From NCBI RefSeq assembly GCF_024642105.1, contig NZ_JAHEBT010000056.1, positions 22,531-86,530 on the forward strand: a stretch of DNA of 64,000 nt, read 5' to 3'. The position numbers were made by a program, and so were the translations under genes. The stretch comes from Flavobacterium sp. (GTDB taxonomy: Bacteria; Bacteroidota; Bacteroidia; Flavobacteriales; Flavobacteriaceae). Of the stretch, positions 3,566 through 52,100 are shown piece by piece. Below the pieces are notes generated by a model. It was not told the DNA's origin, did not search any database, and was given only the letters and a program-made list of their open reading frames with translations. The first letter of the stretch is position 1; each line of letters opens with the position of its first letter.

Positions 3566-4600
3566 ATGGAATTAGACGAAAAAATATATTTGTACTTACT
3601 ACTGCTACTGCCGCTTTTGGTGTTGGTTTTTCTTTTCAATATGTATTGGAAGAGAAAAAAACAGCGCGAATTTGGTGATTTGGAACTGGTGCAGCGATTA
3701 AGTCCGGACAGTTCTGTTTTTAAACCTATTTTAAAATTAGTGGTGTTGCTTTTGGCTTTAACAGGTTTGATTTTAGGCTTGGTCAATCCAAAAATTGGCA
3801 CTAAAATGGAAACCGTAAAACGAGAAGGAATCGACATTGTTTTTGCCATAGACGTTTCTAAAAGTATGCTGTGCGAAGATGTAGCACCAAGTCGTTTGGA
3901 AAAAAGTAAGCAATTGGTTTCCCAAATTATCAATCAATTGGGTAACGACAGAATTGGAATTGTAGCTTATGCGGGCAGTTCGTTTCCAGTTTTGCCCATT
4001 ACAACCGATTATAGCGTTGCCAAAATGTTTCTGCAAAGTATGAACACCGAAATGGTTTCGTCTGTAGGAACGTCTTTGGATGAAGCAATAAAATTGTCGG
4101 CCACGTATTTTGATGATAAAAAAACGAGCAAATTATTGATTTTAGTTTCCGATGGAGAAGACCATTCGGAAGGTGCCGAAGCCGCTGCGGAAGAAGCCAA
4201 TAAATTAGGCATTAAAATCATTACGATAGGGGTAGGAACTCCAAATGGCGGAACCATTCCGTTACGACGTAATGGGGTTTTAGAAGGTTTGAAAAGAGAC
4301 AATAACAACGAAGTGGTAATCACTAAGTTGAATTCTGAAAGTTTGACTGCTATCGCCAAAGCTACCAAAGGAGGCTATGTGAATGGTGCCAACACCAAAC
4401 AGGTTATTGACTATGTGAAAAACGCCCTGAATAATATTGAAAAAACCGAATTTGAGGCGACTCAAATGGCCGATTTCCAGTCGCAATTTCAGTGGTTTTT
4501 GGGATTTGCATTCGTGTTGTTGTTTGCGGATGTTTTTCTATTGGAACGCAAAACCAAATGGGTGAATCAACTCAATTTGTTTAATGAAAAGGAACAATAA
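3566..4600 (+). CDS. batB: BatB, VWA-domain protein
   Basis: MIDAS DVSKS, DRIGIVAYAG, LVSDGEDH. ATG 3566 preferred because the ORF-track start at 3539 lies inside the repeat. Confidence 0.9.
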   Translation: MELDEKIYLYLLLLLPLLVLVFLFNMYWKRKKQREFGDLELVQRLSPDSSVFKPILKLVVLLLALTGLILGLVNPKIGTKMETVKREGIDIVFAIDVSKSMLCEDVAPSRLEKSKQLVSQIINQLGNDRIGIVAYAGSSFPVLPITTDYSVAKMFLQSMNTEMVSSVGTSLDEAIKLSATYFDDKKTSKLLILVSDGEDHSEGAEAAAEEANKLGIKIITIGVGTPNGGTIPLRRNGVLEGLKRDNNNEVVITKLNSESLTAIAKATKGGYVNGANTKQVIDYVKNALNNIEKTEFEATQMADFQSQFQWFLGFAFVLLFADVFLLERKTKWVNQLNLFNEKEQ

Positions 4601-14665: not shown

Positions 14666-14727
14666 TGTCATCCTGAACTTGTTTCAGGATCTCAATTTTC
14701 AGATTCTGAAACAAGTTCAGAATGACA
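14666..14727. repeat. TGTCA-tagged REP doublet (inverted pair of hairpin units)
   Basis: TGTCATCCTGAACTTGTTTCAGGATCT...AGATTCTGAAACAAGTTCAGAATGACA; siblings at 22243 and 24966. Confidence 0.85.
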
Positions 14728-14732
14728 AAAAA

Positions 14733-20040: not shown

Positions 20041-20182
20041 AACACAGATTTCACGAATTTCTCAGATTGGTTGAGTACTTCTTATTAAAAGTACCCACAC
20101 GGAAGGATTTGTGTGAAAGTGACTGTTTTTCAATTCTCTTAAATTTTAATGATCTGTGGTAATCTGTGCAATCTGTGTTAGA
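20038..20182. repeat. Nonamer-periodic MITE-like element with 13-bp perfect terminal inverted repeats
   Basis: TCTAACACAGATT (20038-20050) and AATCTGTGTTAGA (20170-20182); arms built of ACAGATT-like 9-nt units. Confidence 0.75.
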
Positions 20183-20238: not shown

Positions 20239-20264
20239 AGCTATTGCCTTTTGCCTTTTGCCTA
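20239..20264. repeat. TTGCCT(A/T) heptamer half-element
   Basis: CTATTGCCTTTTGCCTTTTGCCTA; same family as 13959-14026. Confidence 0.55.
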
Positions 20265-20272
20265 TAAATCAT

Positions 20273-20280
20273 TACTTTCG
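20273..20280 (+). promoter_or_regulatory. -7 promoter element of ileS (TAnnTTCG variant)
   Basis: TACTTTCG about 25 nt upstream of ATG 20305. Confidence 0.5.
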
Positions 20281-20304
20281 CAACTCGATTTAGAAAAGCA
20301 TACC

Positions 20305-23300
20305 ATGAGCACAAAATTTACTGAATACAAAGGACTTGACTTGCCAAAATCGGCAGAAGAAGTGCTGGATTTTTGGAAGAAAGAAACGATATTTGAGAAA
20401 ACGGTAACTACCCGTGAGGGGAATCCGCCGTACGTGTTTTTTGAGGGGCCGCCTTCGGCAAATGGCTTGCCAGGAATTCACCACGTGATGGCACGTGCTA
20501 TTAAAGATATTTTTTGTCGCTATAAAACTCAAAAAGGGTTCCAAGTAAAGCGTAAAGCAGGTTGGGATACCCACGGTTTGCCGGTTGAATTAGGTACCGA
20601 AAAAGAATTGGGAATTACCAAAGAAGACATTGGTAAAACCATCACCGTAGAAGAATACAACGAGGCGTGCAAACGCACCGTGATGCGCTATACTGACGTT
20701 TGGAACGATCTAACGGAGAAAATGGGGTATTGGGTAGATATGGAAGATCCGTATGTGACGTACAAACCTAAATATATGGAAACCGTGTGGTGGTTGTTGA
20801 AACAAATCTACAACAAGGATTTGATGTACAAAGGGTACACCATTCAGCCGTACTCGCCAAAAGCAGGGACAGGATTGTCTTCGCACGAGGTGAATCAACC
20901 AGGTTCGTACCGCGATGTAACGGACACTACCATTGTAGCACAGTTCAGAAGCCCCCTAACCCCCGAAGGGGGAATTGGTAGCAATTCAATTTTAAAAGCA
21001 TTTGGTCTTAGCTCCCCTCCTTTGGAGGGGCTGGGGGAGGCTTTTTTCTTGGCTTGGACGACAACACCTTGGACTTTGCCATCGAATACCGCTTTGACTG
21101 TAGGTTCAAAAATTGATTATGTGTTGGTGAAAACCTTCAATCAATATACGTTCTTACCAACGAATGTCATTTTGGCTAAAAACTTGGTGGGAAAACAATT
21201 TGGCAAAACGTTTTTCGAATCGGCAGAAGCTGCTGATTTTGAAAATTTCAAAGCAGGAGATAAGAAAATTCCATTTCAAATTTTGGCGGAAGCCAAAGGA
21301 GCGGACTTGGTTGGAATTCGTTACGAGCAATTGATGCCGTTGGCTTTGCCGTATCAAAATGCTGAAGATGCGTTCCGTGTGATTGCAGGAGATTTCGTTA
21401 CTACCGAAGACGGAACAGGAATTGTACATACCGCGCCTACTTTTGGTGCAGATGATGCTAAAGTGGCGGCAGCAGCTACTCCCGAAGTGCCGCCAATGTT
21501 GGTTTTGGACGAAAATGGTACGCCAGTTCCTTTGGTGGATTTACAAGGTAAATTTGTAAATGGACTAGGTGATTTATCAGGTAAATACGTTAAAAACGAA
21601 TACTATAACGAGGGTGAAGCACCAGAGCGTTCTGCCGATGTAGAAATTGCGATTCAGTTAAAAGAAGAAAATAAGGCGTTCAAAGTGGAAAAATACGTCC
21701 ACAGTTACCCACATTGTTGGAGAACGGATAAGCCTATTTTATATTACCCATTGGATTCTTGGTTCATCAAGATTACCGAAGTGCGTGACCGTATGTTTGA
21801 CTTGAACGATTCCATCAACTGGAAGCCAAAAGCTACAGGTGAAGGTCGTTTTGGAAACTGGTTGAAAAACGCTAACGATTGGAATTTATCGCGTTCTAGA
21901 TATTGGGGAATTCCGTTGCCAATTTGGAGAACCGAAGACAAACAAGAAGAAATCTTGATTGGTTCGGTTGAAGAATTGTACCACGAAATTGAAAAATCAA
22001 TTCAGGCGGGTTGTCAAAAAACAAATCCGTTTGCTGGTTTCGAAATTGGAAACATGTCGGAAGCGAATTATGATTTGATTGATTTGCACAAAAATGTAGT
22101 GGACGAAATCACTTTGGTTTCTGCTTCAGGAAAACCAATGCAACGCGAAAGCGATTTGATTGACGTTTGGTTTGATTCAGGCGCAATGCCTTATGCACAA
22201 TGGCATTACCCATTTGAAAATAAAGAACTTATAGATGGCGTTTGTCATTCCGAACTTGTTTCGGAATCTAAAGAGGAGAACCTGAAACAAGTTCAGGTTG
22301 ACAAGCGTATGTTTCCAGCTGATTTTATTGCTGAAGGAGTCGATCAAACCCGTGGTTGGTTTTATACTTTGCACGCTATTGGAACTTTGGTTTTTGACAA
22401 AATCGCGTATAAAAATGTGGTTTCTAACGGATTGGTATTGGACAAAAACGGACAGAAAATGTCGAAACGTTTAGGAAATGCCGTTGATCCTTTTGAAACT
22501 TTGAAAGAATATGGTCCAGATGCGACGCGTTGGTACATGATATCCAATGCGAATCCTTGGGATAATTTAAAGTTTGACTTGGAAGGAATTGCTGAGGTGC
22601 GTCGTAAGTTCTTCGGGACCTTATACAACACCTATTCGTTCTTTAGTTTGTATGCCAATATCGATGGTTTTACCTATTCAGAAGCTGAGATTCCGTTGGC
22701 AGAACGCCCAGAAATTGACCGTTGGATTATATCAGAATTGAATACGTTGATTAAAGATGTCGATGGTTTTTATGCTGATTATGAACCAACCAGAGCGGCT
22801 CGTGCGATTTCTGATTTTGTTCAGGAAAACTTGAGTAACTGGTACGTTCGTTTGTGCAGAAGACGTTTTTGGAAAGGGGAGTATGCGCAAGATAAAATCG
22901 CTGCTTACCAAACCTTATACACTTGTTTGTTAAGTATAAGTAAATTGGCTGCACCAATTGCGCCATTTTATATGGATAAATTATACAGAGACTTAACACA
23001 AGCGACACATTCAGAAGGTTTTGAGAGTGTACATTTGGCAAAATTTCCAGAATACGTTGAAAACTTTGTTGATAAATCGTTGGAAAGCAAAATGCAAAAA
23101 GCCCAAACGATTTCATCATTGGTATTGTCGCTTCGTAAAAAAGAGATGATTAAAGTGCGTCAACCTTTGCAAAAGGTAATGATTCCGGTACTTGACAACA
23201 ATCAAAGAGCTGAAATCGAAGCAGTATCAGACTTGATAAAAGCGGAAGTAAACGTAAAAGAAATTGTGCTTTTAGACGATGCTTCGGGGATTTTGGTCAA

Positions 23301-23814
23301 ACAAATTAAACCTAATTTCAAGACATTAGGACCTCGTTTTGGAAAAGACATGGGCTTGATTTCTAAGGAGATACAAGGATTTTCGCCAGATCAAATCAAT
23401 GAATTGGAACGCGAAGGAAGTTTAGCTATTGTTATTGCGGGAAATACCGTATCTTTAACTATAGAAGATGTAGAAATTACATCGCAGGATATTGAAGGTT
23501 GGTTAGTGGCTAATTCTAACGGAATTACAGTAGCGTTAGACATTACCATTTCGGCAGAATTGAAACAAGAAGGGATTGCGAGAGAATTGGTCAACCGAAT
23601 TCAAAATATCCGTAAAGATTCAGGGTTTGAAGTAACAGATAAAATTAAAGTGACGTTACAACACAATGCCGAATTACAAGCAGCCGTAGTGGCTAATGAA
23701 GAGTACATCAAGTCAGAAACCTTAACCGAAAGTTTGGTTTTTGAAAATGAAGTAGCTAACGGATTAGAAATAGAATTTGACGATATAAAAACAAGAATAA
23801 TAATCACTAAATAA
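20305..23814 (+). CDS. ileS: Isoleucine--tRNA ligase, type 2, with two in-frame repeat-derived inserts
   Basis: FFEGPPSANGLPGIHH, GWDTHGLPVE, AWTTTPWTLPSN, DWNLSRSRYWG, FIAEGVDQTRGW, KMSKR. Confidence 0.98.
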   Translation: MSTKFTEYKGLDLPKSAEEVLDFWKKETIFEKTVTTREGNPPYVFFEGPPSANGLPGIHHVMARAIKDIFCRYKTQKGFQVKRKAGWDTHGLPVELGTEKELGITKEDIGKTITVEEYNEACKRTVMRYTDVWNDLTEKMGYWVDMEDPYVTYKPKYMETVWWLLKQIYNKDLMYKGYTIQPYSPKAGTGLSSHEVNQPGSYRDVTDTTIVAQFRSPLTPEGGIGSNSILKAFGLSSPPLEGLGEAFFLAWTTTPWTLPSNTALTVGSKIDYVLVKTFNQYTFLPTNVILAKNLVGKQFGKTFFESAEAADFENFKAGDKKIPFQILAEAKGADLVGIRYEQLMPLALPYQNAEDAFRVIAGDFVTTEDGTGIVHTAPTFGADDAKVAAAATPEVPPMLVLDENGTPVPLVDLQGKFVNGLGDLSGKYVKNEYYNEGEAPERSADVEIAIQLKEENKAFKVEKYVHSYPHCWRTDKPILYYPLDSWFIKITEVRDRMFDLNDSINWKPKATGEGRFGNWLKNANDWNLSRSRYWGIPLPIWRTEDKQEEILIGSVEELYHEIEKSIQAGCQKTNPFAGFEIGNMSEANYDLIDLHKNVVDEITLVSASGKPMQRESDLIDVWFDSGAMPYAQWHYPFENKELIDGVCHSELVSESKEENLKQVQVDKRMFPADFIAEGVDQTRGWFYTLHAIGTLVFDKIAYKNVVSNGLVLDKNGQKMSKRLGNAVDPFETLKEYGPDATRWYMISNANPWDNLKFDLEGIAEVRRKFFGTLYNTYSFFSLYANIDGFTYSEAEIPLAERPEIDRWIISELNTLIKDVDGFYADYEPTRAARAISDFVQENLSNWYVRLCRRRFWKGEYAQDKIAAYQTLYTCLLSISKLAAPIAPFYMDKLYRDLTQATHSEGFESVHLAKFPEYVENFVDKSLESKMQKAQTISSLVLSLRKKEMIKVRQPLQKVMIPVLDNNQRAEIEAVSDLIKAEVNVKEIVLLDDASGILVKQIKPNFKTLGPRFGKDMGLISKEIQGFSPDQINELEREGSLAIVIAGNTVSLTIEDVEITSQDIEGWLVANSNGITVALDITISAELKQEGIARELVNRIQNIRKDSGFEVTDKIKVTLQHNAELQAAVVANEEYIKSETLTESLVFENEVANGLEIEFDDIKTRIIITK
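20950..21042. repeat. G/C-rich double-hairpin element inserted in-frame in ileS (31 codons)
   Basis: CCCCC-GAA-GGGGG and CCCCTCC-TTT-GGAGGGG hairpins in inverted arms; translates as SPLTPEGG...SPPLEGLGEA. Confidence 0.8.
22243..22303. repeat. TGTCA-tagged REP doublet inserted in-frame in ileS (20 codons)
   Basis: TGTCATTCCGAACTTGTTTCGGAATCT...AGAACCTGAAACAAGTTCAGGTTGACA; homologous to intergenic 14666-14727. Confidence 0.9.
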
Positions 23815-24921: not shown

Positions 24922-24965
24922 TTTGTGATACAGATATAAAAGGAGGCTACAAACAGGGTTATTCT

Positions 24966-25046
24966 TGTTAAACTGAACTTGTTTCAGTTTCTTTCGACTA
25001 CTTTTTGATAATTCATTATGGATTCCGAAATAAATTCGGAATGACA
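24966..25046. repeat. TGTCA-tagged REP doublet between convergent genes
   Basis: TGTTAAACTGAACTTGTTTCAGTTTCT...GGATTCCGAAATAAATTCGGAATGACA. Confidence 0.8.
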
Positions 25047-25088
25047 AAAATGCTGCTTTTTTAGCCCCCTCTTTAATTTTTGCTTATT

Positions 25089-25640: not shown

Positions 25641-25672
25641 AAATCGGTGGCAATTTGTGAAATCTGTGTTAG
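25641..25672. repeat. Right-arm remnant of the nonamer-periodic MITE family
   Basis: Ends in AATCTGTGTTAG, identical to 20170-20181. Confidence 0.5.
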
Positions 25673-44779: not shown

Positions 44780-45243
44780 AACGGATTTTACAGATTTACA
44801 CGGATTATTATGACTACTTTATTACATAAAACAATTACCGATGCAGTCTTAAAAATATACTTTGATGTATATAATCAACTTGGATCTGGGTTTCTTGAAA
44901 AGGTGTACCAAAATGCAATGTATTTTGAATTAAAGAATAAAGGGTTTAAAGTAGAAGCTCAAAAACAAATTAAAGTATATTTTAGGAAACAACTTGTTGG
45001 GGAGTATTATGCCGATTTAATAGTTGAAGATAAGGTTATTGTTGAATTAAAAGCGACTGAATTACTTATGAATGTCCATGTGGCTCAAACATTGAATTAC
45101 TTAAAGGCGACAGAAATTGAAGTTGGGTTATTATTAAATTTTGGTGAAGAACCTGAATTCAAACGCATGATATATACAAACAACAGAAAAATTAATTTAA
45201 AAAATCAGTGATAATCCGTTTCATCCGTTTTATCCGTGGCTAA
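44766..45243. mobile_element. Putative minimal mobile cassette: GxxExxY gene between 41-bp inverted repeats
   Basis: TTAGCCACGGATAAAACGGAT (44766-44786) is the exact reverse complement of 45223-45243; the full arms match at 34 of 41 nt. Confidence 0.7.
44810..45211 (+). CDS. GxxExxY protein (PD-(D/E)XK-like nuclease fold)
   Basis: GFLEKVY motif (44888-44908), ADLIVEDKVIVELKA, GLLLNFG; 133 aa. Confidence 0.92.
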   Translation: MTTLLHKTITDAVLKIYFDVYNQLGSGFLEKVYQNAMYFELKNKGFKVEAQKQIKVYFRKQLVGEYYADLIVEDKVIVELKATELLMNVHVAQTLNYLKATEIEVGLLLNFGEEPEFKRMIYTNNRKINLKNQ

Positions 45244-49138: not shown

Positions 49139-52100
49139 ATGTTATACTTTACCCAAATTACACCTAAAAAAAGGGTGGCCTTTGTGCTATTCTTTTTTCT
49201 TTCTTGTTTTGGCTACAGCCAAGAAGTGCAACTCGACCCCCACTTTAATTCGTATGATGATGGACTTTTGGGCGATGGTTTTGACGGAACCGTGCGAACA
49301 TTGTCTCTTCAGACCGACGGAAAATTAATCGTAGGAGGTGAATTTCTAAATTACAATGGCAGCGCCACTCCGTATCTCTGTCGATTACAGACGGATGGTT
49401 CCAAAGATATTGGATTTAATTTAGGTACTTCTTTCAATAGTAAAATTTATACTTCGCTTATCCAGCCTGATGGCAAAATTATAGTGGCAGGAGCCTTTAC
49501 TACTTGTAATGGAATTCCAGTGGGGCGCTTGGTGCGGTTGAATGCAGACGGTTCGAGAGATACTACTTTCGACACTTCTATTGCGGCGAGTAGTGGTACT
49601 ATTTATGGATTGGCATTACAGGCTGATGGTAAATTACTCGTGGTAGGAAGTTTTACCAAATTCAATGGAATTACTGTAAACAGAATTGCAAGAGTTTTAC
49701 CTCATGGCGATTTGGATACTAGTTTCGTTACAGGGACAGGAACTACGAGTACAATTGACGATGTGGCGATTGCTCCTGATGGTAAAATAGTGCTTTCGGG
49801 AACGTTTAGTTCTTTTAACGGGAATGCTAATTATTCCAAATTAGTTCGGTTGCATTCAGATGGAAGCATTGATACCACTTTTTCTATAGGGACTGGTTTT
49901 GATGATGCTATTGAAGCTATTGCGATTCAGGCGGAGGGTAAAATTGTAGTAGGAGGTAGCTTTCTGAATTACAATGGAACGCCTCAAAATAGAATTGTTC
50001 GTTTGAATACGAATGGAACCGTCGATACCAGTTTTCTGTCTGGAACGGGTTTTAATAATGGAGCAGTTCATGCGATTCATAGTACTTCTGGCGGATTTCT
50101 GGTAGGCGGTAGTTTTAGCGGTACTTATAAGTCGACAGCTGTTAATCGTCTGGTTTTCTTAAATTCAAACGGAACACTGAATACCAATTTTGATATTGGC
50201 GCAGGCCCAGCCTCAGCAACTGTGTACACTTTAACTGAATCAATAGATAGCTTTTTTGTTGGAGGTTCTTTTTCTTTTTTTGATGATTTGAAACAGGGGA
50301 AGTTAGCTAAAATTAGTACCGTTGGCGAATTGGATTCAGGGTATTTAACCGCTGGAGTAGGATTTGATAAAGCAGTAGACAAAATAGTTCCTTTAGTAAA
50401 TGGAAGTTATATTGCTTTTGGAAGTTTTACTCAATTTAATGGAAAATCCATTAATCGAATTGTAAAACTGACGGCAAACGGTGAGCTGGACACTACTTTC
50501 AATCCCAATCAATCTGGATTTGATAGTACAGTCAAAGAAGTAGTGGTACTGCCAGACGGAAAACTTCTAGTAGCGGGAAATTTCACTAAATATAATGATA
50601 TTCCTGTCAAAAGAATGGTTCGTTTGGATCTGAATGGTGATATCGATACGTCTTTTAATGTTGGTTCTGGTTTTAATTATATGGTCTATACTTTGGCTTT
50701 GCAGCCTGACGGCAAAATTATTGTGGCGGGTAGTTTTACCACGTATAAAGGAGTAGCTGTTAAAAAAGTGATTCGGTTACAGCTAAACGGTGATTTGGAT
50801 ACTAGTTTTAACATTGGAACAAATCCTAATGCTACACCAAATCTATTATTGATTCAACCCGATGGAAAGGTTGTAGTGGGAGGAGATTTCGCTACTTTTA
50901 ATGGAGTTGGATCGAATAAATTAATTCGGTTAAATTCAAATGGTTCGGTTGATTCGAGTTTTTCTGTTGGGACAGGATTTGTAGGGACTATTTATACTAT
51001 GGCGTTACAAAATGACGGGAAAATTCTTGTGGGAGGTTCACTATCCAAATACAACGGACAAACGATTGGCAAAATAATACGACTTAATTCTAATGGAACC
51101 GCAGACGCAACGTTTAATTCAGGAACTGGTTTTAGTGGAGGAACAGTGCGTTCCATTGTTTTACAATCTAATGGAAGGATTTTAGTAGGCGGTTCTTTTT
51201 CGGGGAATTATAAGGGTACTTCTGTAAAAAGAATGGTGCGCTTATTGCCAGATGGGACTTATGACACTTCTTTTCCAGTCATTCTAAATGGGCAACTGAA
51301 TAGTATTTGTTTGGTTCAAGGTGGAGCGGTTATTGGAGGTAATTTCAATTCGGTTTCCGGAATTTCGAAGCATCGCATCGCGAAGTTGTTATTTTGTCAA
51401 GAAGGCACAATTTGGGACGGGAAAAATTGGAGCAATGGTTTGCCAACGAAGGATAAAACGGTTATTTTTAATAGCAATTATGAGATTTCGACTGATACTA
51501 AAATGTGTTCTTGTGTAGTCAATTCAGGAATAACAGTTACGGTTGCAACTGCAGCTACTTTAGAATTGGTGTCCAACTATTCCGGAAGCGGAAATTTAGT
51601 TTTTGAAAATAATGCTTCTTTATTTCAAACGGATGATTCCGTTGTAAATACAGGGGTTGTTCAGTTCAAGCGAAAAACCACACCGGTTCGTAAAACGGAT
51701 TATACCTATTGGTCCTCGCCAGTGGCAGGTCAACAATTGAAATTACTTTCTCCGAATTCGCCTTCTTCTACCTTTTATTCTTTTAATTCTCAGTTAAATC
51801 ATTGGAAAAATGAATCATACAATACAAATATGATTATAGGCAAAGGCTATATTTTTCAAGCGCCTCAAAGTTTTTCAGCAACGACTCCGGCAATTTTCGA
51901 AGCTGCTTTTTCTGGAATACCCAATAATGGTTTGGTTTCACTTCCTATAGCTCAAACGAAAACGCCCAATTTGATAGGAAATCCGTATCCTTCATCACTG
52001 AATGCCGATGCATTTATTCTAGAGAATCAGAATGTGCTACAGGGTAGCTTGTATTTTTGGACACACAATACCCCAATTGATAATGGCCAATATACCTCTG

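Follow-up and report, generated by a model that had tools for sequence, protein, structure and literature searches.

A hairpin-bounded segment in the reading frame of ileS

The window analysed here, that is the whole of a 64-kb stretch of Flavobacterium sp. DNA, contains an ileS gene coding for an isoleucyl-tRNA synthetase (IleRS) of the eukaryote-like type 2 (20302-23814, + strand; PF00133, PF08264 and PF19302), and this gene is the host of a 93-nt segment (20950-21042) which carries a G+C-rich hairpin arm at each end. The ileS open reading frame (ORF) extends over 20251-23814 (+) and comprises 1187 codons, with a mechanical start at the TTG in 20251; the actual start is probably the ATG at 20302, in agreement with the N-termini of homologues. 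Pfam recognizes tRNA-synt_1, Anticodon_1 and DUF5915 in the product. The segment corresponds to 31 in-frame ileS codons with no stops, from AGC at 20950 (codon 234) to the GCT that closes it at 21042, and the translation across it reads VAQFR-SPLTPEGGIGSNSILKAFGLSSPPLEGLGEA-FFLAWTTTPWT, the segment adjoining the WTTTPW motif on its upstream side. An earlier note on this DNA had described a 93-bp, 31-codon in-frame segment with a hairpin in each arm, and our re-reading gives the same coordinates and frame, with both hairpins present (20961-20973 and 21014-21030).

The left arm (AGCCCCCTAACCCCCGAAGGGGGA; 20950-20973, +), which is read SPLTPEGG and is an exact copy of a Bacteroidota-wide 23-nt unit, consists of an outer C-run (20952-20956), a TAA spacer and the hairpin CCCCC-GAA-GGGGG (20961-20973). 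It is separated by 39 nt from the right arm (TCCCCTCCTTTGGAGGGGCTGGGGGAGGCT; 21013-21042, +), read SPPLEGLGEA and inverted relative to the left one, in which the hairpin CCCCTCC-TTT-GGAGGGG (21014-21030) is followed by a CT spacer and an outer G-run (21033-21037). Both arms therefore have, in inverted order, a common plan of outer C or G run, short spacer and all-G/C hairpin, and in the minimum-energy fold the outer runs of the two arms pair together. The right arm is of a variant type, which is also found with canonical left arms in two intergenic copies (L096 and L098). Between the arms lies an A+T-rich middle of 39 nt (20974-21012, +), read IGSNSILKAFGLS, for which a short helix is predicted. 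The earlier note took the whole segment to be far more G/C-rich than its surroundings; this is true of the arms (GC of 0.71 on the left and 0.70 on the right) and not of the middle (0.31, that is 31% GC), so that the entire segment averages 0.54, to be compared with 0.40 for ileS and 0.36 for the 64-kb window.

Neither arm is expected by chance, as none of 100 shuffles of the window yielded one, and the left hairpin is the sole C4+/loop/G4+ hairpin in the 64 kb. The fold energy of the RNA of the whole segment does not differ significantly from that of composition-matched shuffles (z = -1.45); the signal is thus in the arm sequences and not in overall fold stability. Nor is the insert an assembly artefact, because metagenome contigs from four independent runs (river, freshwater, aquaculture) span it, three of them with no differences and one with two.

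A hairpin unit of Bacteroidota and its DUF559-carrying forms

The left arm represents a 23-nt unit, GCCCCCTAACCCCC-NNN-GGGGGA, and positions 20951-20973 of the window match GCCCCC-TAA-CCCCC-NNN-GGGGG-A exactly. Scanning species-representative genomes with the pattern GCCCCCTAACCCCCNNNGGGGGA returned at least 120 loci (136 copies), and all loci among the matches listed belong to Bacteroidota, the classes and families represented being Flavobacteriia, Cytophagia, Prevotellaceae, Saprospiria and Chitinophagia. The 18-mer CTAACCCCCGAAGGGGGA is also present in 20 viral (phage-like) contigs, mostly of 35-44% GC, several of which have multiple such hairpins, with copies located mostly between genes. 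Judged from these matches, the range of the family is Bacteroidota, beyond Flavobacterium. The consensus of the unit, A-GCCCCC-TAA-CCCCC-(G/A)AA-GGGGG-A-A-Y, extends one base upstream and three bases downstream, and inverted arm variants occur, for example CCCCTCC-loop-GGAGGGG-NN-GGGGGAGGC. Among the matches listed, 62 of the 136 copies (about 45%) have an inverted partner arm within 1.5 kb, and at 51 of these 62 the partner is no more than 120 nt away, which results in paired elements some 70-150 bp long, comparable to that of ileS; the partner arms are often of the CCCTCC...GGAGGG...GGGGAGG type, as in the window and, for example, in L096 and L098. Beyond the extended consensus of the unit, 135 flanks contained no target motif and no flanking direct repeat or target-site duplication.

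About a quarter of the listed copies lie within long ORFs, the 40 records of spanning ORFs corresponding to about 30 distinct copies of the 136. Nearly all of these coding copies are read either as SPLTP(E/K)GG, with the unit forward, or as (V/I)PP(S/L)GVRGL, with the unit reversed, which are two of the four stop-free frames of the unit. The hosts confirmed by Pfam are AspRS, MetRS, a ValRS-like enzyme, DnaG primase, an ABC ATPase, a TonB-receptor plug and a histidine kinase. The proposal of the earlier note that a coding-compatible repeat family is involved is thus borne out by a unit present at 120 or more Bacteroidota loci and in 20 viral contigs, with about 30 of the listed copies in frame in ORFs. 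Two further cases of arm-like inserts deserve separate mention: in the ileS of L193, about 90 codons downstream of the main site, LTPPSGDGGL replaces ENFKAGDKKI, and in a KdpB-like P-type ATPase (L143) two arms stand nearly back to back (SLTPNGGTNIPPLGVRGL).

The unit is also linked to an endonuclease domain. The MetH proteins of three distant Bacteroidota (Lutibacter and two Cytophagia metagenome-assembled genomes, MAGs) have two insert sites, A and B, occupied either by arms with a short spacer or by arms with about 110-130 residues. These long inserts are DUF559 (PF04480; E about 1e-35, the range over MetH and the ValRS-like enzyme mentioned below being 1e-34 to 1e-36), are stop-free in the MetH frame and end in ..ALA-VPPSGVRGL-G or similar; Pfam finds in the MetH inserts DUF559/MTES_1575 alone and no intein motifs. 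A protein query that joins IleRS flanks, arms and a DUF559 matched P0123 (class I synthetase fragment with DUF559), P0128 (MetRS with DUF559), P0203 (alpha/beta hydrolase with DUF559) and several MetH fragments with DUF559. P0123 is a metagenomic IleRS (contig L206) which has DUF559 between arms at the exact site of the window ileS, with the layout VAQFK-IKNL-[GCCCCCTAAATCCCCCATAGGGGAC]-DUF559-[GTCCCCCAAGGGTGATTTAGGGGGC]-STYFLAWTTTPW before YFLAWTTTPW. An in-frame TGA lies in its right arm (VPQG-stop-FRGL; 2640-2680 of the contig) and gene calling gives two ileS ORFs, one of 364 and one of 930 residues, a split that could represent a genes-in-pieces synthetase, a sequencing error or a recent mutation. 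A comparable arrangement is seen in the ValRS-like enzyme of L175, where arms and DUF559 stand directly before ATTRPET; this motif corresponds to WTTTPW, and the insert site is homologous to that of the window. Free-standing DUF559 genes flanked by arms of the same architecture were found at an ilvB-ilvN junction (Bacteroidaceae) and on two short contigs.

The DUF559 of the long forms, a Vsr-like PD-(D/E)xK domain, is often in the frame of the host protein, and full and empty forms share sites in orthologous genes. DUF559, Vsr and a group I intron homing endonuclease have been placed in one clade (PMC3424549), the Vsr-like PD-(D/E)xK homing endonuclease I-Bth0305I (pdb 3r3p) being cited therein. 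The suggestion of the earlier note that the segment may be an empty version of inserts that carry a DUF559 is supported by the full and arms-only inserts at the same MetH sites and by the metagenomic IleRS that has DUF559 at this very position. Some sources name MetH, MetRS and IleRS fragments with inserts 'very-short-patch-repair endonuclease', an annotation artefact which arises because the DUF559 is in frame.

Some further observations concern the unit itself. Short pairs in Cytophagales (L089, L091 and L164) have between their arms a common inner hairpin (ACTGACGTTAATACGTCAAAAACT), translated TDVNTSKT, and are by this feature a distinct subfamily of short elements. A small hairpin, ATTCCTATTAGGGGTAAATAGGATTT, directly follows the left arm in several intergenic pairs of Flavobacterium (L086, L104, L112, L115, L167, L186 and L200), and in L086 and L104 the arm pair spans the entire intergenic region, from the stop codon to the ATG of the next gene. 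The C5-TAA-C5 core of the unit resembles i-motif or telomere-like repeats, and some copies (L003/L010) have four or five C5 runs at a spacing of 3-4 nt, which could form an i-motif or, on the opposite strand, a G-quadruplex; literature matches to CCCCCTAACCCCC were i-motif nanotechnology papers only.

Cassette and native loop in IleRS

The peptide of the window is not the one that most Flavobacteriia IleRS carry at this position: these have a different, native 17-residue loop (VAQFK-xxxETLPSFLQGFGDIH-ILAW), and this, together with the related repeats present elsewhere, leaves standing the repeat origin put forward in the earlier note. Related Flavobacterium contigs from the same waters, 85-95% identical to the window, carry the native-loop allele and differ in a block at 20948-21044 (+), where they have 52-57 nt versus the 97-101 nt of the window. 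The joints between alleles run from 20947 to 21045 with 52 letters between, or from 20947 to 21049 with 57 letters between. Therefore the cassette replaces the native loop and is not a simple addition, the net gain being about 15 codons.

A metagenome scan in which the left arm was placed beside VAQF returned 25 loci, and all 25 are short cassettes in ileS. These fall into a two-armed group, SPLTPEGG..N(S/D)(I/V)xKAF..SPPLEGLGEA-(F/Y)FLAW, and a left-arm-only group, PLTPKGG..DENSLNKAFG..EERTGDDFILAW, to which the genome matches add a Bergeyella MAG with both arms (L087) and L193 with the left arm only. The middle motif N[SD][IV]xKAF is found in every ileS cassette and is absent from copies in other genes. 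We have built neighbour-joining distance trees of 110 and 141 IleRS fragments (200 residues, loop removed), and in these the carriers stand among native-loop sequences in no fewer than six clades, the flanks track host taxonomy, and homology of the native loop can be recognised from one of these clades to the next. Since a native loop, once lost, cannot be regenerated, this pattern requires that the segment was laterally replaced repeatedly. On these trees the cassette and the native loop are two alleles scattered over Flavobacteriia IleRS; the order inside the Flavobacterium clade is uncertain, and the between-family pattern is not.

The same gene is affected elsewhere in some relatives. The second ileS loop (WHYPFE to ADFIAEG) of L001, L227 and L228 is replaced by a solitary SPLTPEGG unit (WHYPFEKSPLTPEGGIPPMADFIAEG), so that one gene has been struck at two loops by one unit family, by replacement. 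The L001 ileS, on a JGI metagenome contig and 87% identical to that of the window, is in addition called as two ORFs of 407 and 740 residues, with about 40 extra bases including a stop (4224-4269) between DENGNPI and VPLVDLQ; the split may be genuine, may reflect a further small insert or may be due to misassembly.

The conservation of the arms has been analysed as third-codon-position identity at codons for the same amino acid in 13 carriers with intact right arms. This identity amounts to 0.52 in the 300-nt flanks on each side, 0.92 in the right arm, on which the scan had placed no condition, and 0.98 in the left arm, for which it did select. In agreement, glycine is encoded by GGG in 26 of 26 arm codons versus 21 of 143 flank codons. 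The codons of the arm loops and spacers vary freely (CTG, TCG, AAG, ATG, CAG, TTG), and divergence in the cassette middle is like that of the flanks. In 15 cassettes taken together, 91.8% of the stem cells are paired and the stems are invariant, the only compensated cells being four, all in decayed or other-type arms. The arms must hence be subject to selection at the nucleotide level or to renewal; different types of right arm stand beside near-identical middles in L212 and L220, and this apparent swap points to renewal.

The right-arm stem (21016-21040) together with CTTTTTTCTT gives a match to a terminator-like consensus (21016-21050, +). The T-run after the right arm is not conserved, other carriers having TATTTC or TATTTT, and an internal or intrinsic terminator was rejected as a conserved function on this ground, the match in the window being probably incidental.

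As to where the cassette lies in the protein, the alignment to the closest IleRS of solved structure (8c8v) runs to ..vkFK and continues from eYFLgWTTTPW, with 5 residues versus the 29 of the window. The cassette joins the strand that ends in VAQF(K/R) to the strand (F/Y)FLAWTTTPW, with which the CP1 editing domain begins. In an AlphaFold2 model of residues 18-460 (mean pLDDT 66, a low value for the truncated catalytic fold), the cassette (model residues 217-247, pLDDT 58-76) lies between strands 212-217 and 247-252, with a short helix at ILKA. All carriers keep the reading frame open, the window differs from its 87%-identical relative L001 by an in-frame 3-nt indel in the middle, and the middle is conserved at the amino-acid level; together, these three features indicate that the insert is translated, from which we infer a 31-residue excursion that, according to the model, would have a small helix at its tip. 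Peptides derived from the insert would be, by sequence, the tryptic SPLTPEGGIGSNSILK and AFGLSSPPLEGLGEAFFLAWTTTPWTLPSNTALTVGSK, as well as AFGLSSPPLEGLGEAFFLAW...

Origin of the segment and its relation to known elements

The observations described above make it probable that the 93-bp segment belongs to a family of insertion elements spread across Bacteroidota and represents its short form, which lacks the endonuclease, the long forms carrying a DUF559 that is often in frame. Replacement of the native loop would then occur by double-strand-break repair or homologous recombination and not by transposition, the latter being disfavoured because there are no target-site duplications, and DUF559 nucleases supplied in trans may stimulate this replacement in a homing-like manner. 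The hairpin arms would be the part that is recognised or renewed by the machinery, and it is proposed that for this reason they are pristine, the middle and the flanks having reached saturation in their divergence. It is possible, if somewhat doubtful, that we are dealing with a distinct class of mobile DNA, namely non-splicing, in-frame 'domain-insertion' homing elements with arm ends recognised by a Vsr-like nuclease, which would colonise surface loops and linkers of essential Bacteroidota enzymes (aminoacyl-tRNA synthetases, MetH, DnaG) and whose short cassettes, that of this ileS included, would be kept active or be selected as nucleotide sequence within an essential gene, well after the codons around them have become saturated with changes.

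A number of findings weigh against an endonuclease-less insertion element. The 64-kb window has neither a DUF559 gene (tblastn against it gave nothing significant) nor a second unit (no further arm copy at up to 3 mismatches or in a generic G/C-hairpin scan). A single ileS with DUF559 was found (L206), its arms being of a variant type and the right one containing an in-frame TGA, and all 25 metagenomic ileS cassettes are short. The NSIxKAF middle is ileS-specific, and a profile of it gives a weak match to the DUF559 leader (Y.LLKEFA; about 1.1 sd over shuffles) and a still weaker one to the native loop (about 0.4 sd). Synonymous identity beside the cassette shows no rise in the adjoining bins (0.40-0.47), and without a co-conversion tract any homing is therefore not recent; simple homing is moreover at odds with arms that are common to copies in many different genes. 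As to arm conservation, intactness of the arms was the criterion by which the 13 carriers were picked, several of them being closely related, three lineages have point-mutated right arms (for example SSQIENLGEA) and seven have no right arm, three further lineages carrying other intact arm types. Finally, four metatranscriptome or RNA-library runs over 20700-21300 contain nothing that spans the insert of this allele, one RNA contig in this range being derived from a native-loop relative, and 74 of the 136 listed copies are solitary, with no partner within 1.5 kb.

This last figure fits units that move alone, and indeed a different account holds that there is no single 93-bp element and that two solo hairpin units of 24-30 nt were inserted independently around a resident loop helix (NSILKAF), the site being a hot spot. 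Besides the partnerless units, it would account for the left-arm-only group of ileS cassettes, for the near-identical middles with different right arms in L212 and L220, for the lone SPLTPEGG unit in the second ileS loop of L001, L227 and L228, and for the weak likeness of the middle to the native loop (LPSFLQGF vs NSIAKAF). We nevertheless consider it unlikely, because the arms travel paired around DUF559 and form full and empty pairs at the same sites, because the same arm-middle-arm arrangement is found in clades as distant as Bergeyella (L087) and marine Flavobacteriaceae (L216, L224), where independent double hits are improbable, and because we have found no IleRS in which the KAF middle is of native length and free of arms. 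A lower probability still must be given to the arms being kept by host selection as a nucleic-acid structure within ileS (a translational pause separating the catalytic fold from the CP1 domain, an mRNA stability element, or an internal attenuator or terminator), with their mobile origin secondary. Arms conserved at the nucleotide level against saturated flanks, paired stems in 15 cassettes, the fit of the right arm and T-run to a terminator consensus and the occurrence of right-arm sequences in many other transcripts are what such selection would predict; however, there is almost no covariation, the stems being invariant and not compensated, the T-run is not kept among carriers, most Flavobacteriia have no cassette, the arms have decayed in several lineages and the same units are present in dozens of unrelated genes and in intergenic sites. 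Matches in Rfam 15, searched at a permissive threshold, were likewise sub-threshold only, the best being whalefall-1 with 17.3 bits vs a threshold of 37.

Two other explanations have hardly any weight. Removal of the insert before the enzyme is mature, by an intein-like splice or by translational bypassing as in yeast mitochondrial byp elements, might be suspected from its location in an essential gene beside a conserved motif, as with inteins, and from its richness in hairpins, as with bypass elements. Yet the 31 residues contain no intein blocks and end in ..GEA followed by Phe, with no His-Asn plus Cys/Ser/Thr, and the open frame in all carriers, the in-frame indels and the amino-acid conservation of the middle would be unexpected for an untranslated gap; we thus regard removal as very improbable. 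Even less credible is an ordinary lineage-specific IleRS loop, G+C-rich and palindromic by coincidence and unrelated to repeats. The loop before WTTTPW does vary in length across IleRS, but more than 140 other places, unrelated in context, have an exact copy of the 23-nt left arm, the arm codons defy local codon usage and the distribution is patchy against a conserved native loop, and it is the unit copies elsewhere and the codon usage of the arms that rule this explanation out.

Several known systems resemble in part the insertion element that we favour. The closest by function, and as an analogy only, are the Rickettsia palindromic elements (RPEs), short palindromic repeats said to have been described by Ogata and co-workers in 2000 as lying in frame in coding genes, housekeeping genes included. 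RPEs measure 100-150 bp, are rich in A+T and restricted to Rickettsia; proteins tolerate them as additional surface peptides, intergenic copies exist as well, and they are not known to have an associated enzyme. Common to both are the in-frame palindromic inserts and a family with intergenic copies as well, whereas the elements described here differ by their all-G/C hairpin arms of 23-30 nt, their occurrence in Bacteroidota and in phage-like contigs, the existence of a form with DUF559 as cargo and the replacement of a native loop. By function the segment also resembles a homing element in miniature. With homing endonuclease elements and their degenerate forms (inteins and mini-inteins) the present elements have in common full and empty forms at one site in housekeeping genes, a patchy distribution, the lack of target-site duplication and a nuclease of the Vsr/DUF559 clade, which holds a proven homing enzyme. 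Unlike these, they involve no intron or intein, stay in frame and have hairpin ends common to copies in many genes, classical homing elements having one cognate site each. An intein was rejected in view of the 31 residues ending in ..GEA before Phe, the lack of HINT motifs and the presence of DUF559/MTES_1575 alone, according to Pfam, in the long inserts. The nrdA/mobE locus of phage Aeh1, where a homing-endonuclease insertion reportedly splits a gene, has a parallel in the DUF559 element of L206, whose in-frame TGA splits ileS on a single metagenomic contig; the ileS of the window is intact.

The yeast mitochondrial GC clusters are G+C-rich palindromic mobile clusters in an A+T-rich genome, associated with free-standing endonuclease ORFs (LAGLIDADG) that are fused in frame to genes upstream of them, and ribosomes skip over the byp elements of the same mitochondria. 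G+C-rich palindromes inside coding sequence and endonuclease ORFs in the host frame relate the GC clusters to the present family; the compartment, the lineage and the nuclease family are different, and here the evidence points to translation. Small non-autonomous palindromic repeats are also known in bacteria as miniature transposable elements with inverted repeats (MITEs; Correia/NEMIS, Nezha) and as repetitive extragenic palindromes and their mosaic assemblies (REP/BIME) with RAYT transposases (PMC10969869, PMC3733652). Terminal inverted repeats or hairpins, and a location that is mostly intergenic, often near gene ends and occasionally in frame, are points of likeness, while the nuclease partner is of the PD-(D/E)xK type and not a DDE or Y1 transposase, and the insertions replace local sequence. 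A MITE, which is a deletion derivative of an insertion sequence, was accordingly rejected: inverted arms are present, but duplications and target motifs are absent from the 135 flanks and the partner gene does not code for a transposase. REP/BIME elements are recognized by a GTAG or CGTC tetranucleotide head and an extragenic location (PMC3733652); our unit begins with A-GCCCCC (TCCCCC on the other strand), with neither GTAG nor CGTC, and about a quarter of the listed copies are intragenic, so that this class was rejected as well.

The literature searched, the coverage of which is incomplete, contains no prior description of these arms or of DUF559 inserts in Bacteroidota housekeeping genes, and the family looks like a little-described way for selfish DNA to live in housekeeping proteins. 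If the favoured reading is correct, Bacteroidota would harbour an abundant and apparently undescribed selfish element that stays in frame instead of splicing as introns and inteins do, with hairpin ends whose translation gives Pro/Gly-rich peptides that are tolerated (SPLTPEGG, PPSGVRGL). DUF559, a large family of unknown function, would gain a concrete role, and the element would account for many housekeeping genes that are wrongly annotated or split in the genomes and MAGs of Bacteroidota. The insertions would likewise constitute a natural map of insertion-tolerant sites in aminoacyl-tRNA synthetases and MetH, and a system for asking why conservation at the nucleotide level lasts in a 'junk' insert. 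For annotation, the peptides SPLTPEGG and PPSGVRGL may serve to flag insertions of the element.

Other repeats were noted in the window. A second, unrelated palindromic repeat family is also in frame in ileS, at 22241-22307, where it is read CHSELVSESKEENLKQVQVDK between WHYPFENKE and FPADFIAEG; two intergenic-looking copies lie at 14666-14731 and 24962-25050. Most relatives have at this loop the native NKDLIDNHKAFP, L212 and L218 have the insert, and L230 has half of it. A 30-nt repeat, ATCTGTGGTAATCTGTGCAATCTGTGTTAG, is present at 20152-20181, 25643-25672 and 45204-45233, the first of these being about 120 nt upstream of the probable ileS start. Finally, a tandem array of diverged 153-nt (51-codon) repeats with the pattern ..QPDGKIIVGG.F..YNG.. 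extends over 49308-51243 and looks, from its translation, like a repeat-rich surface or beta-propeller-type protein.

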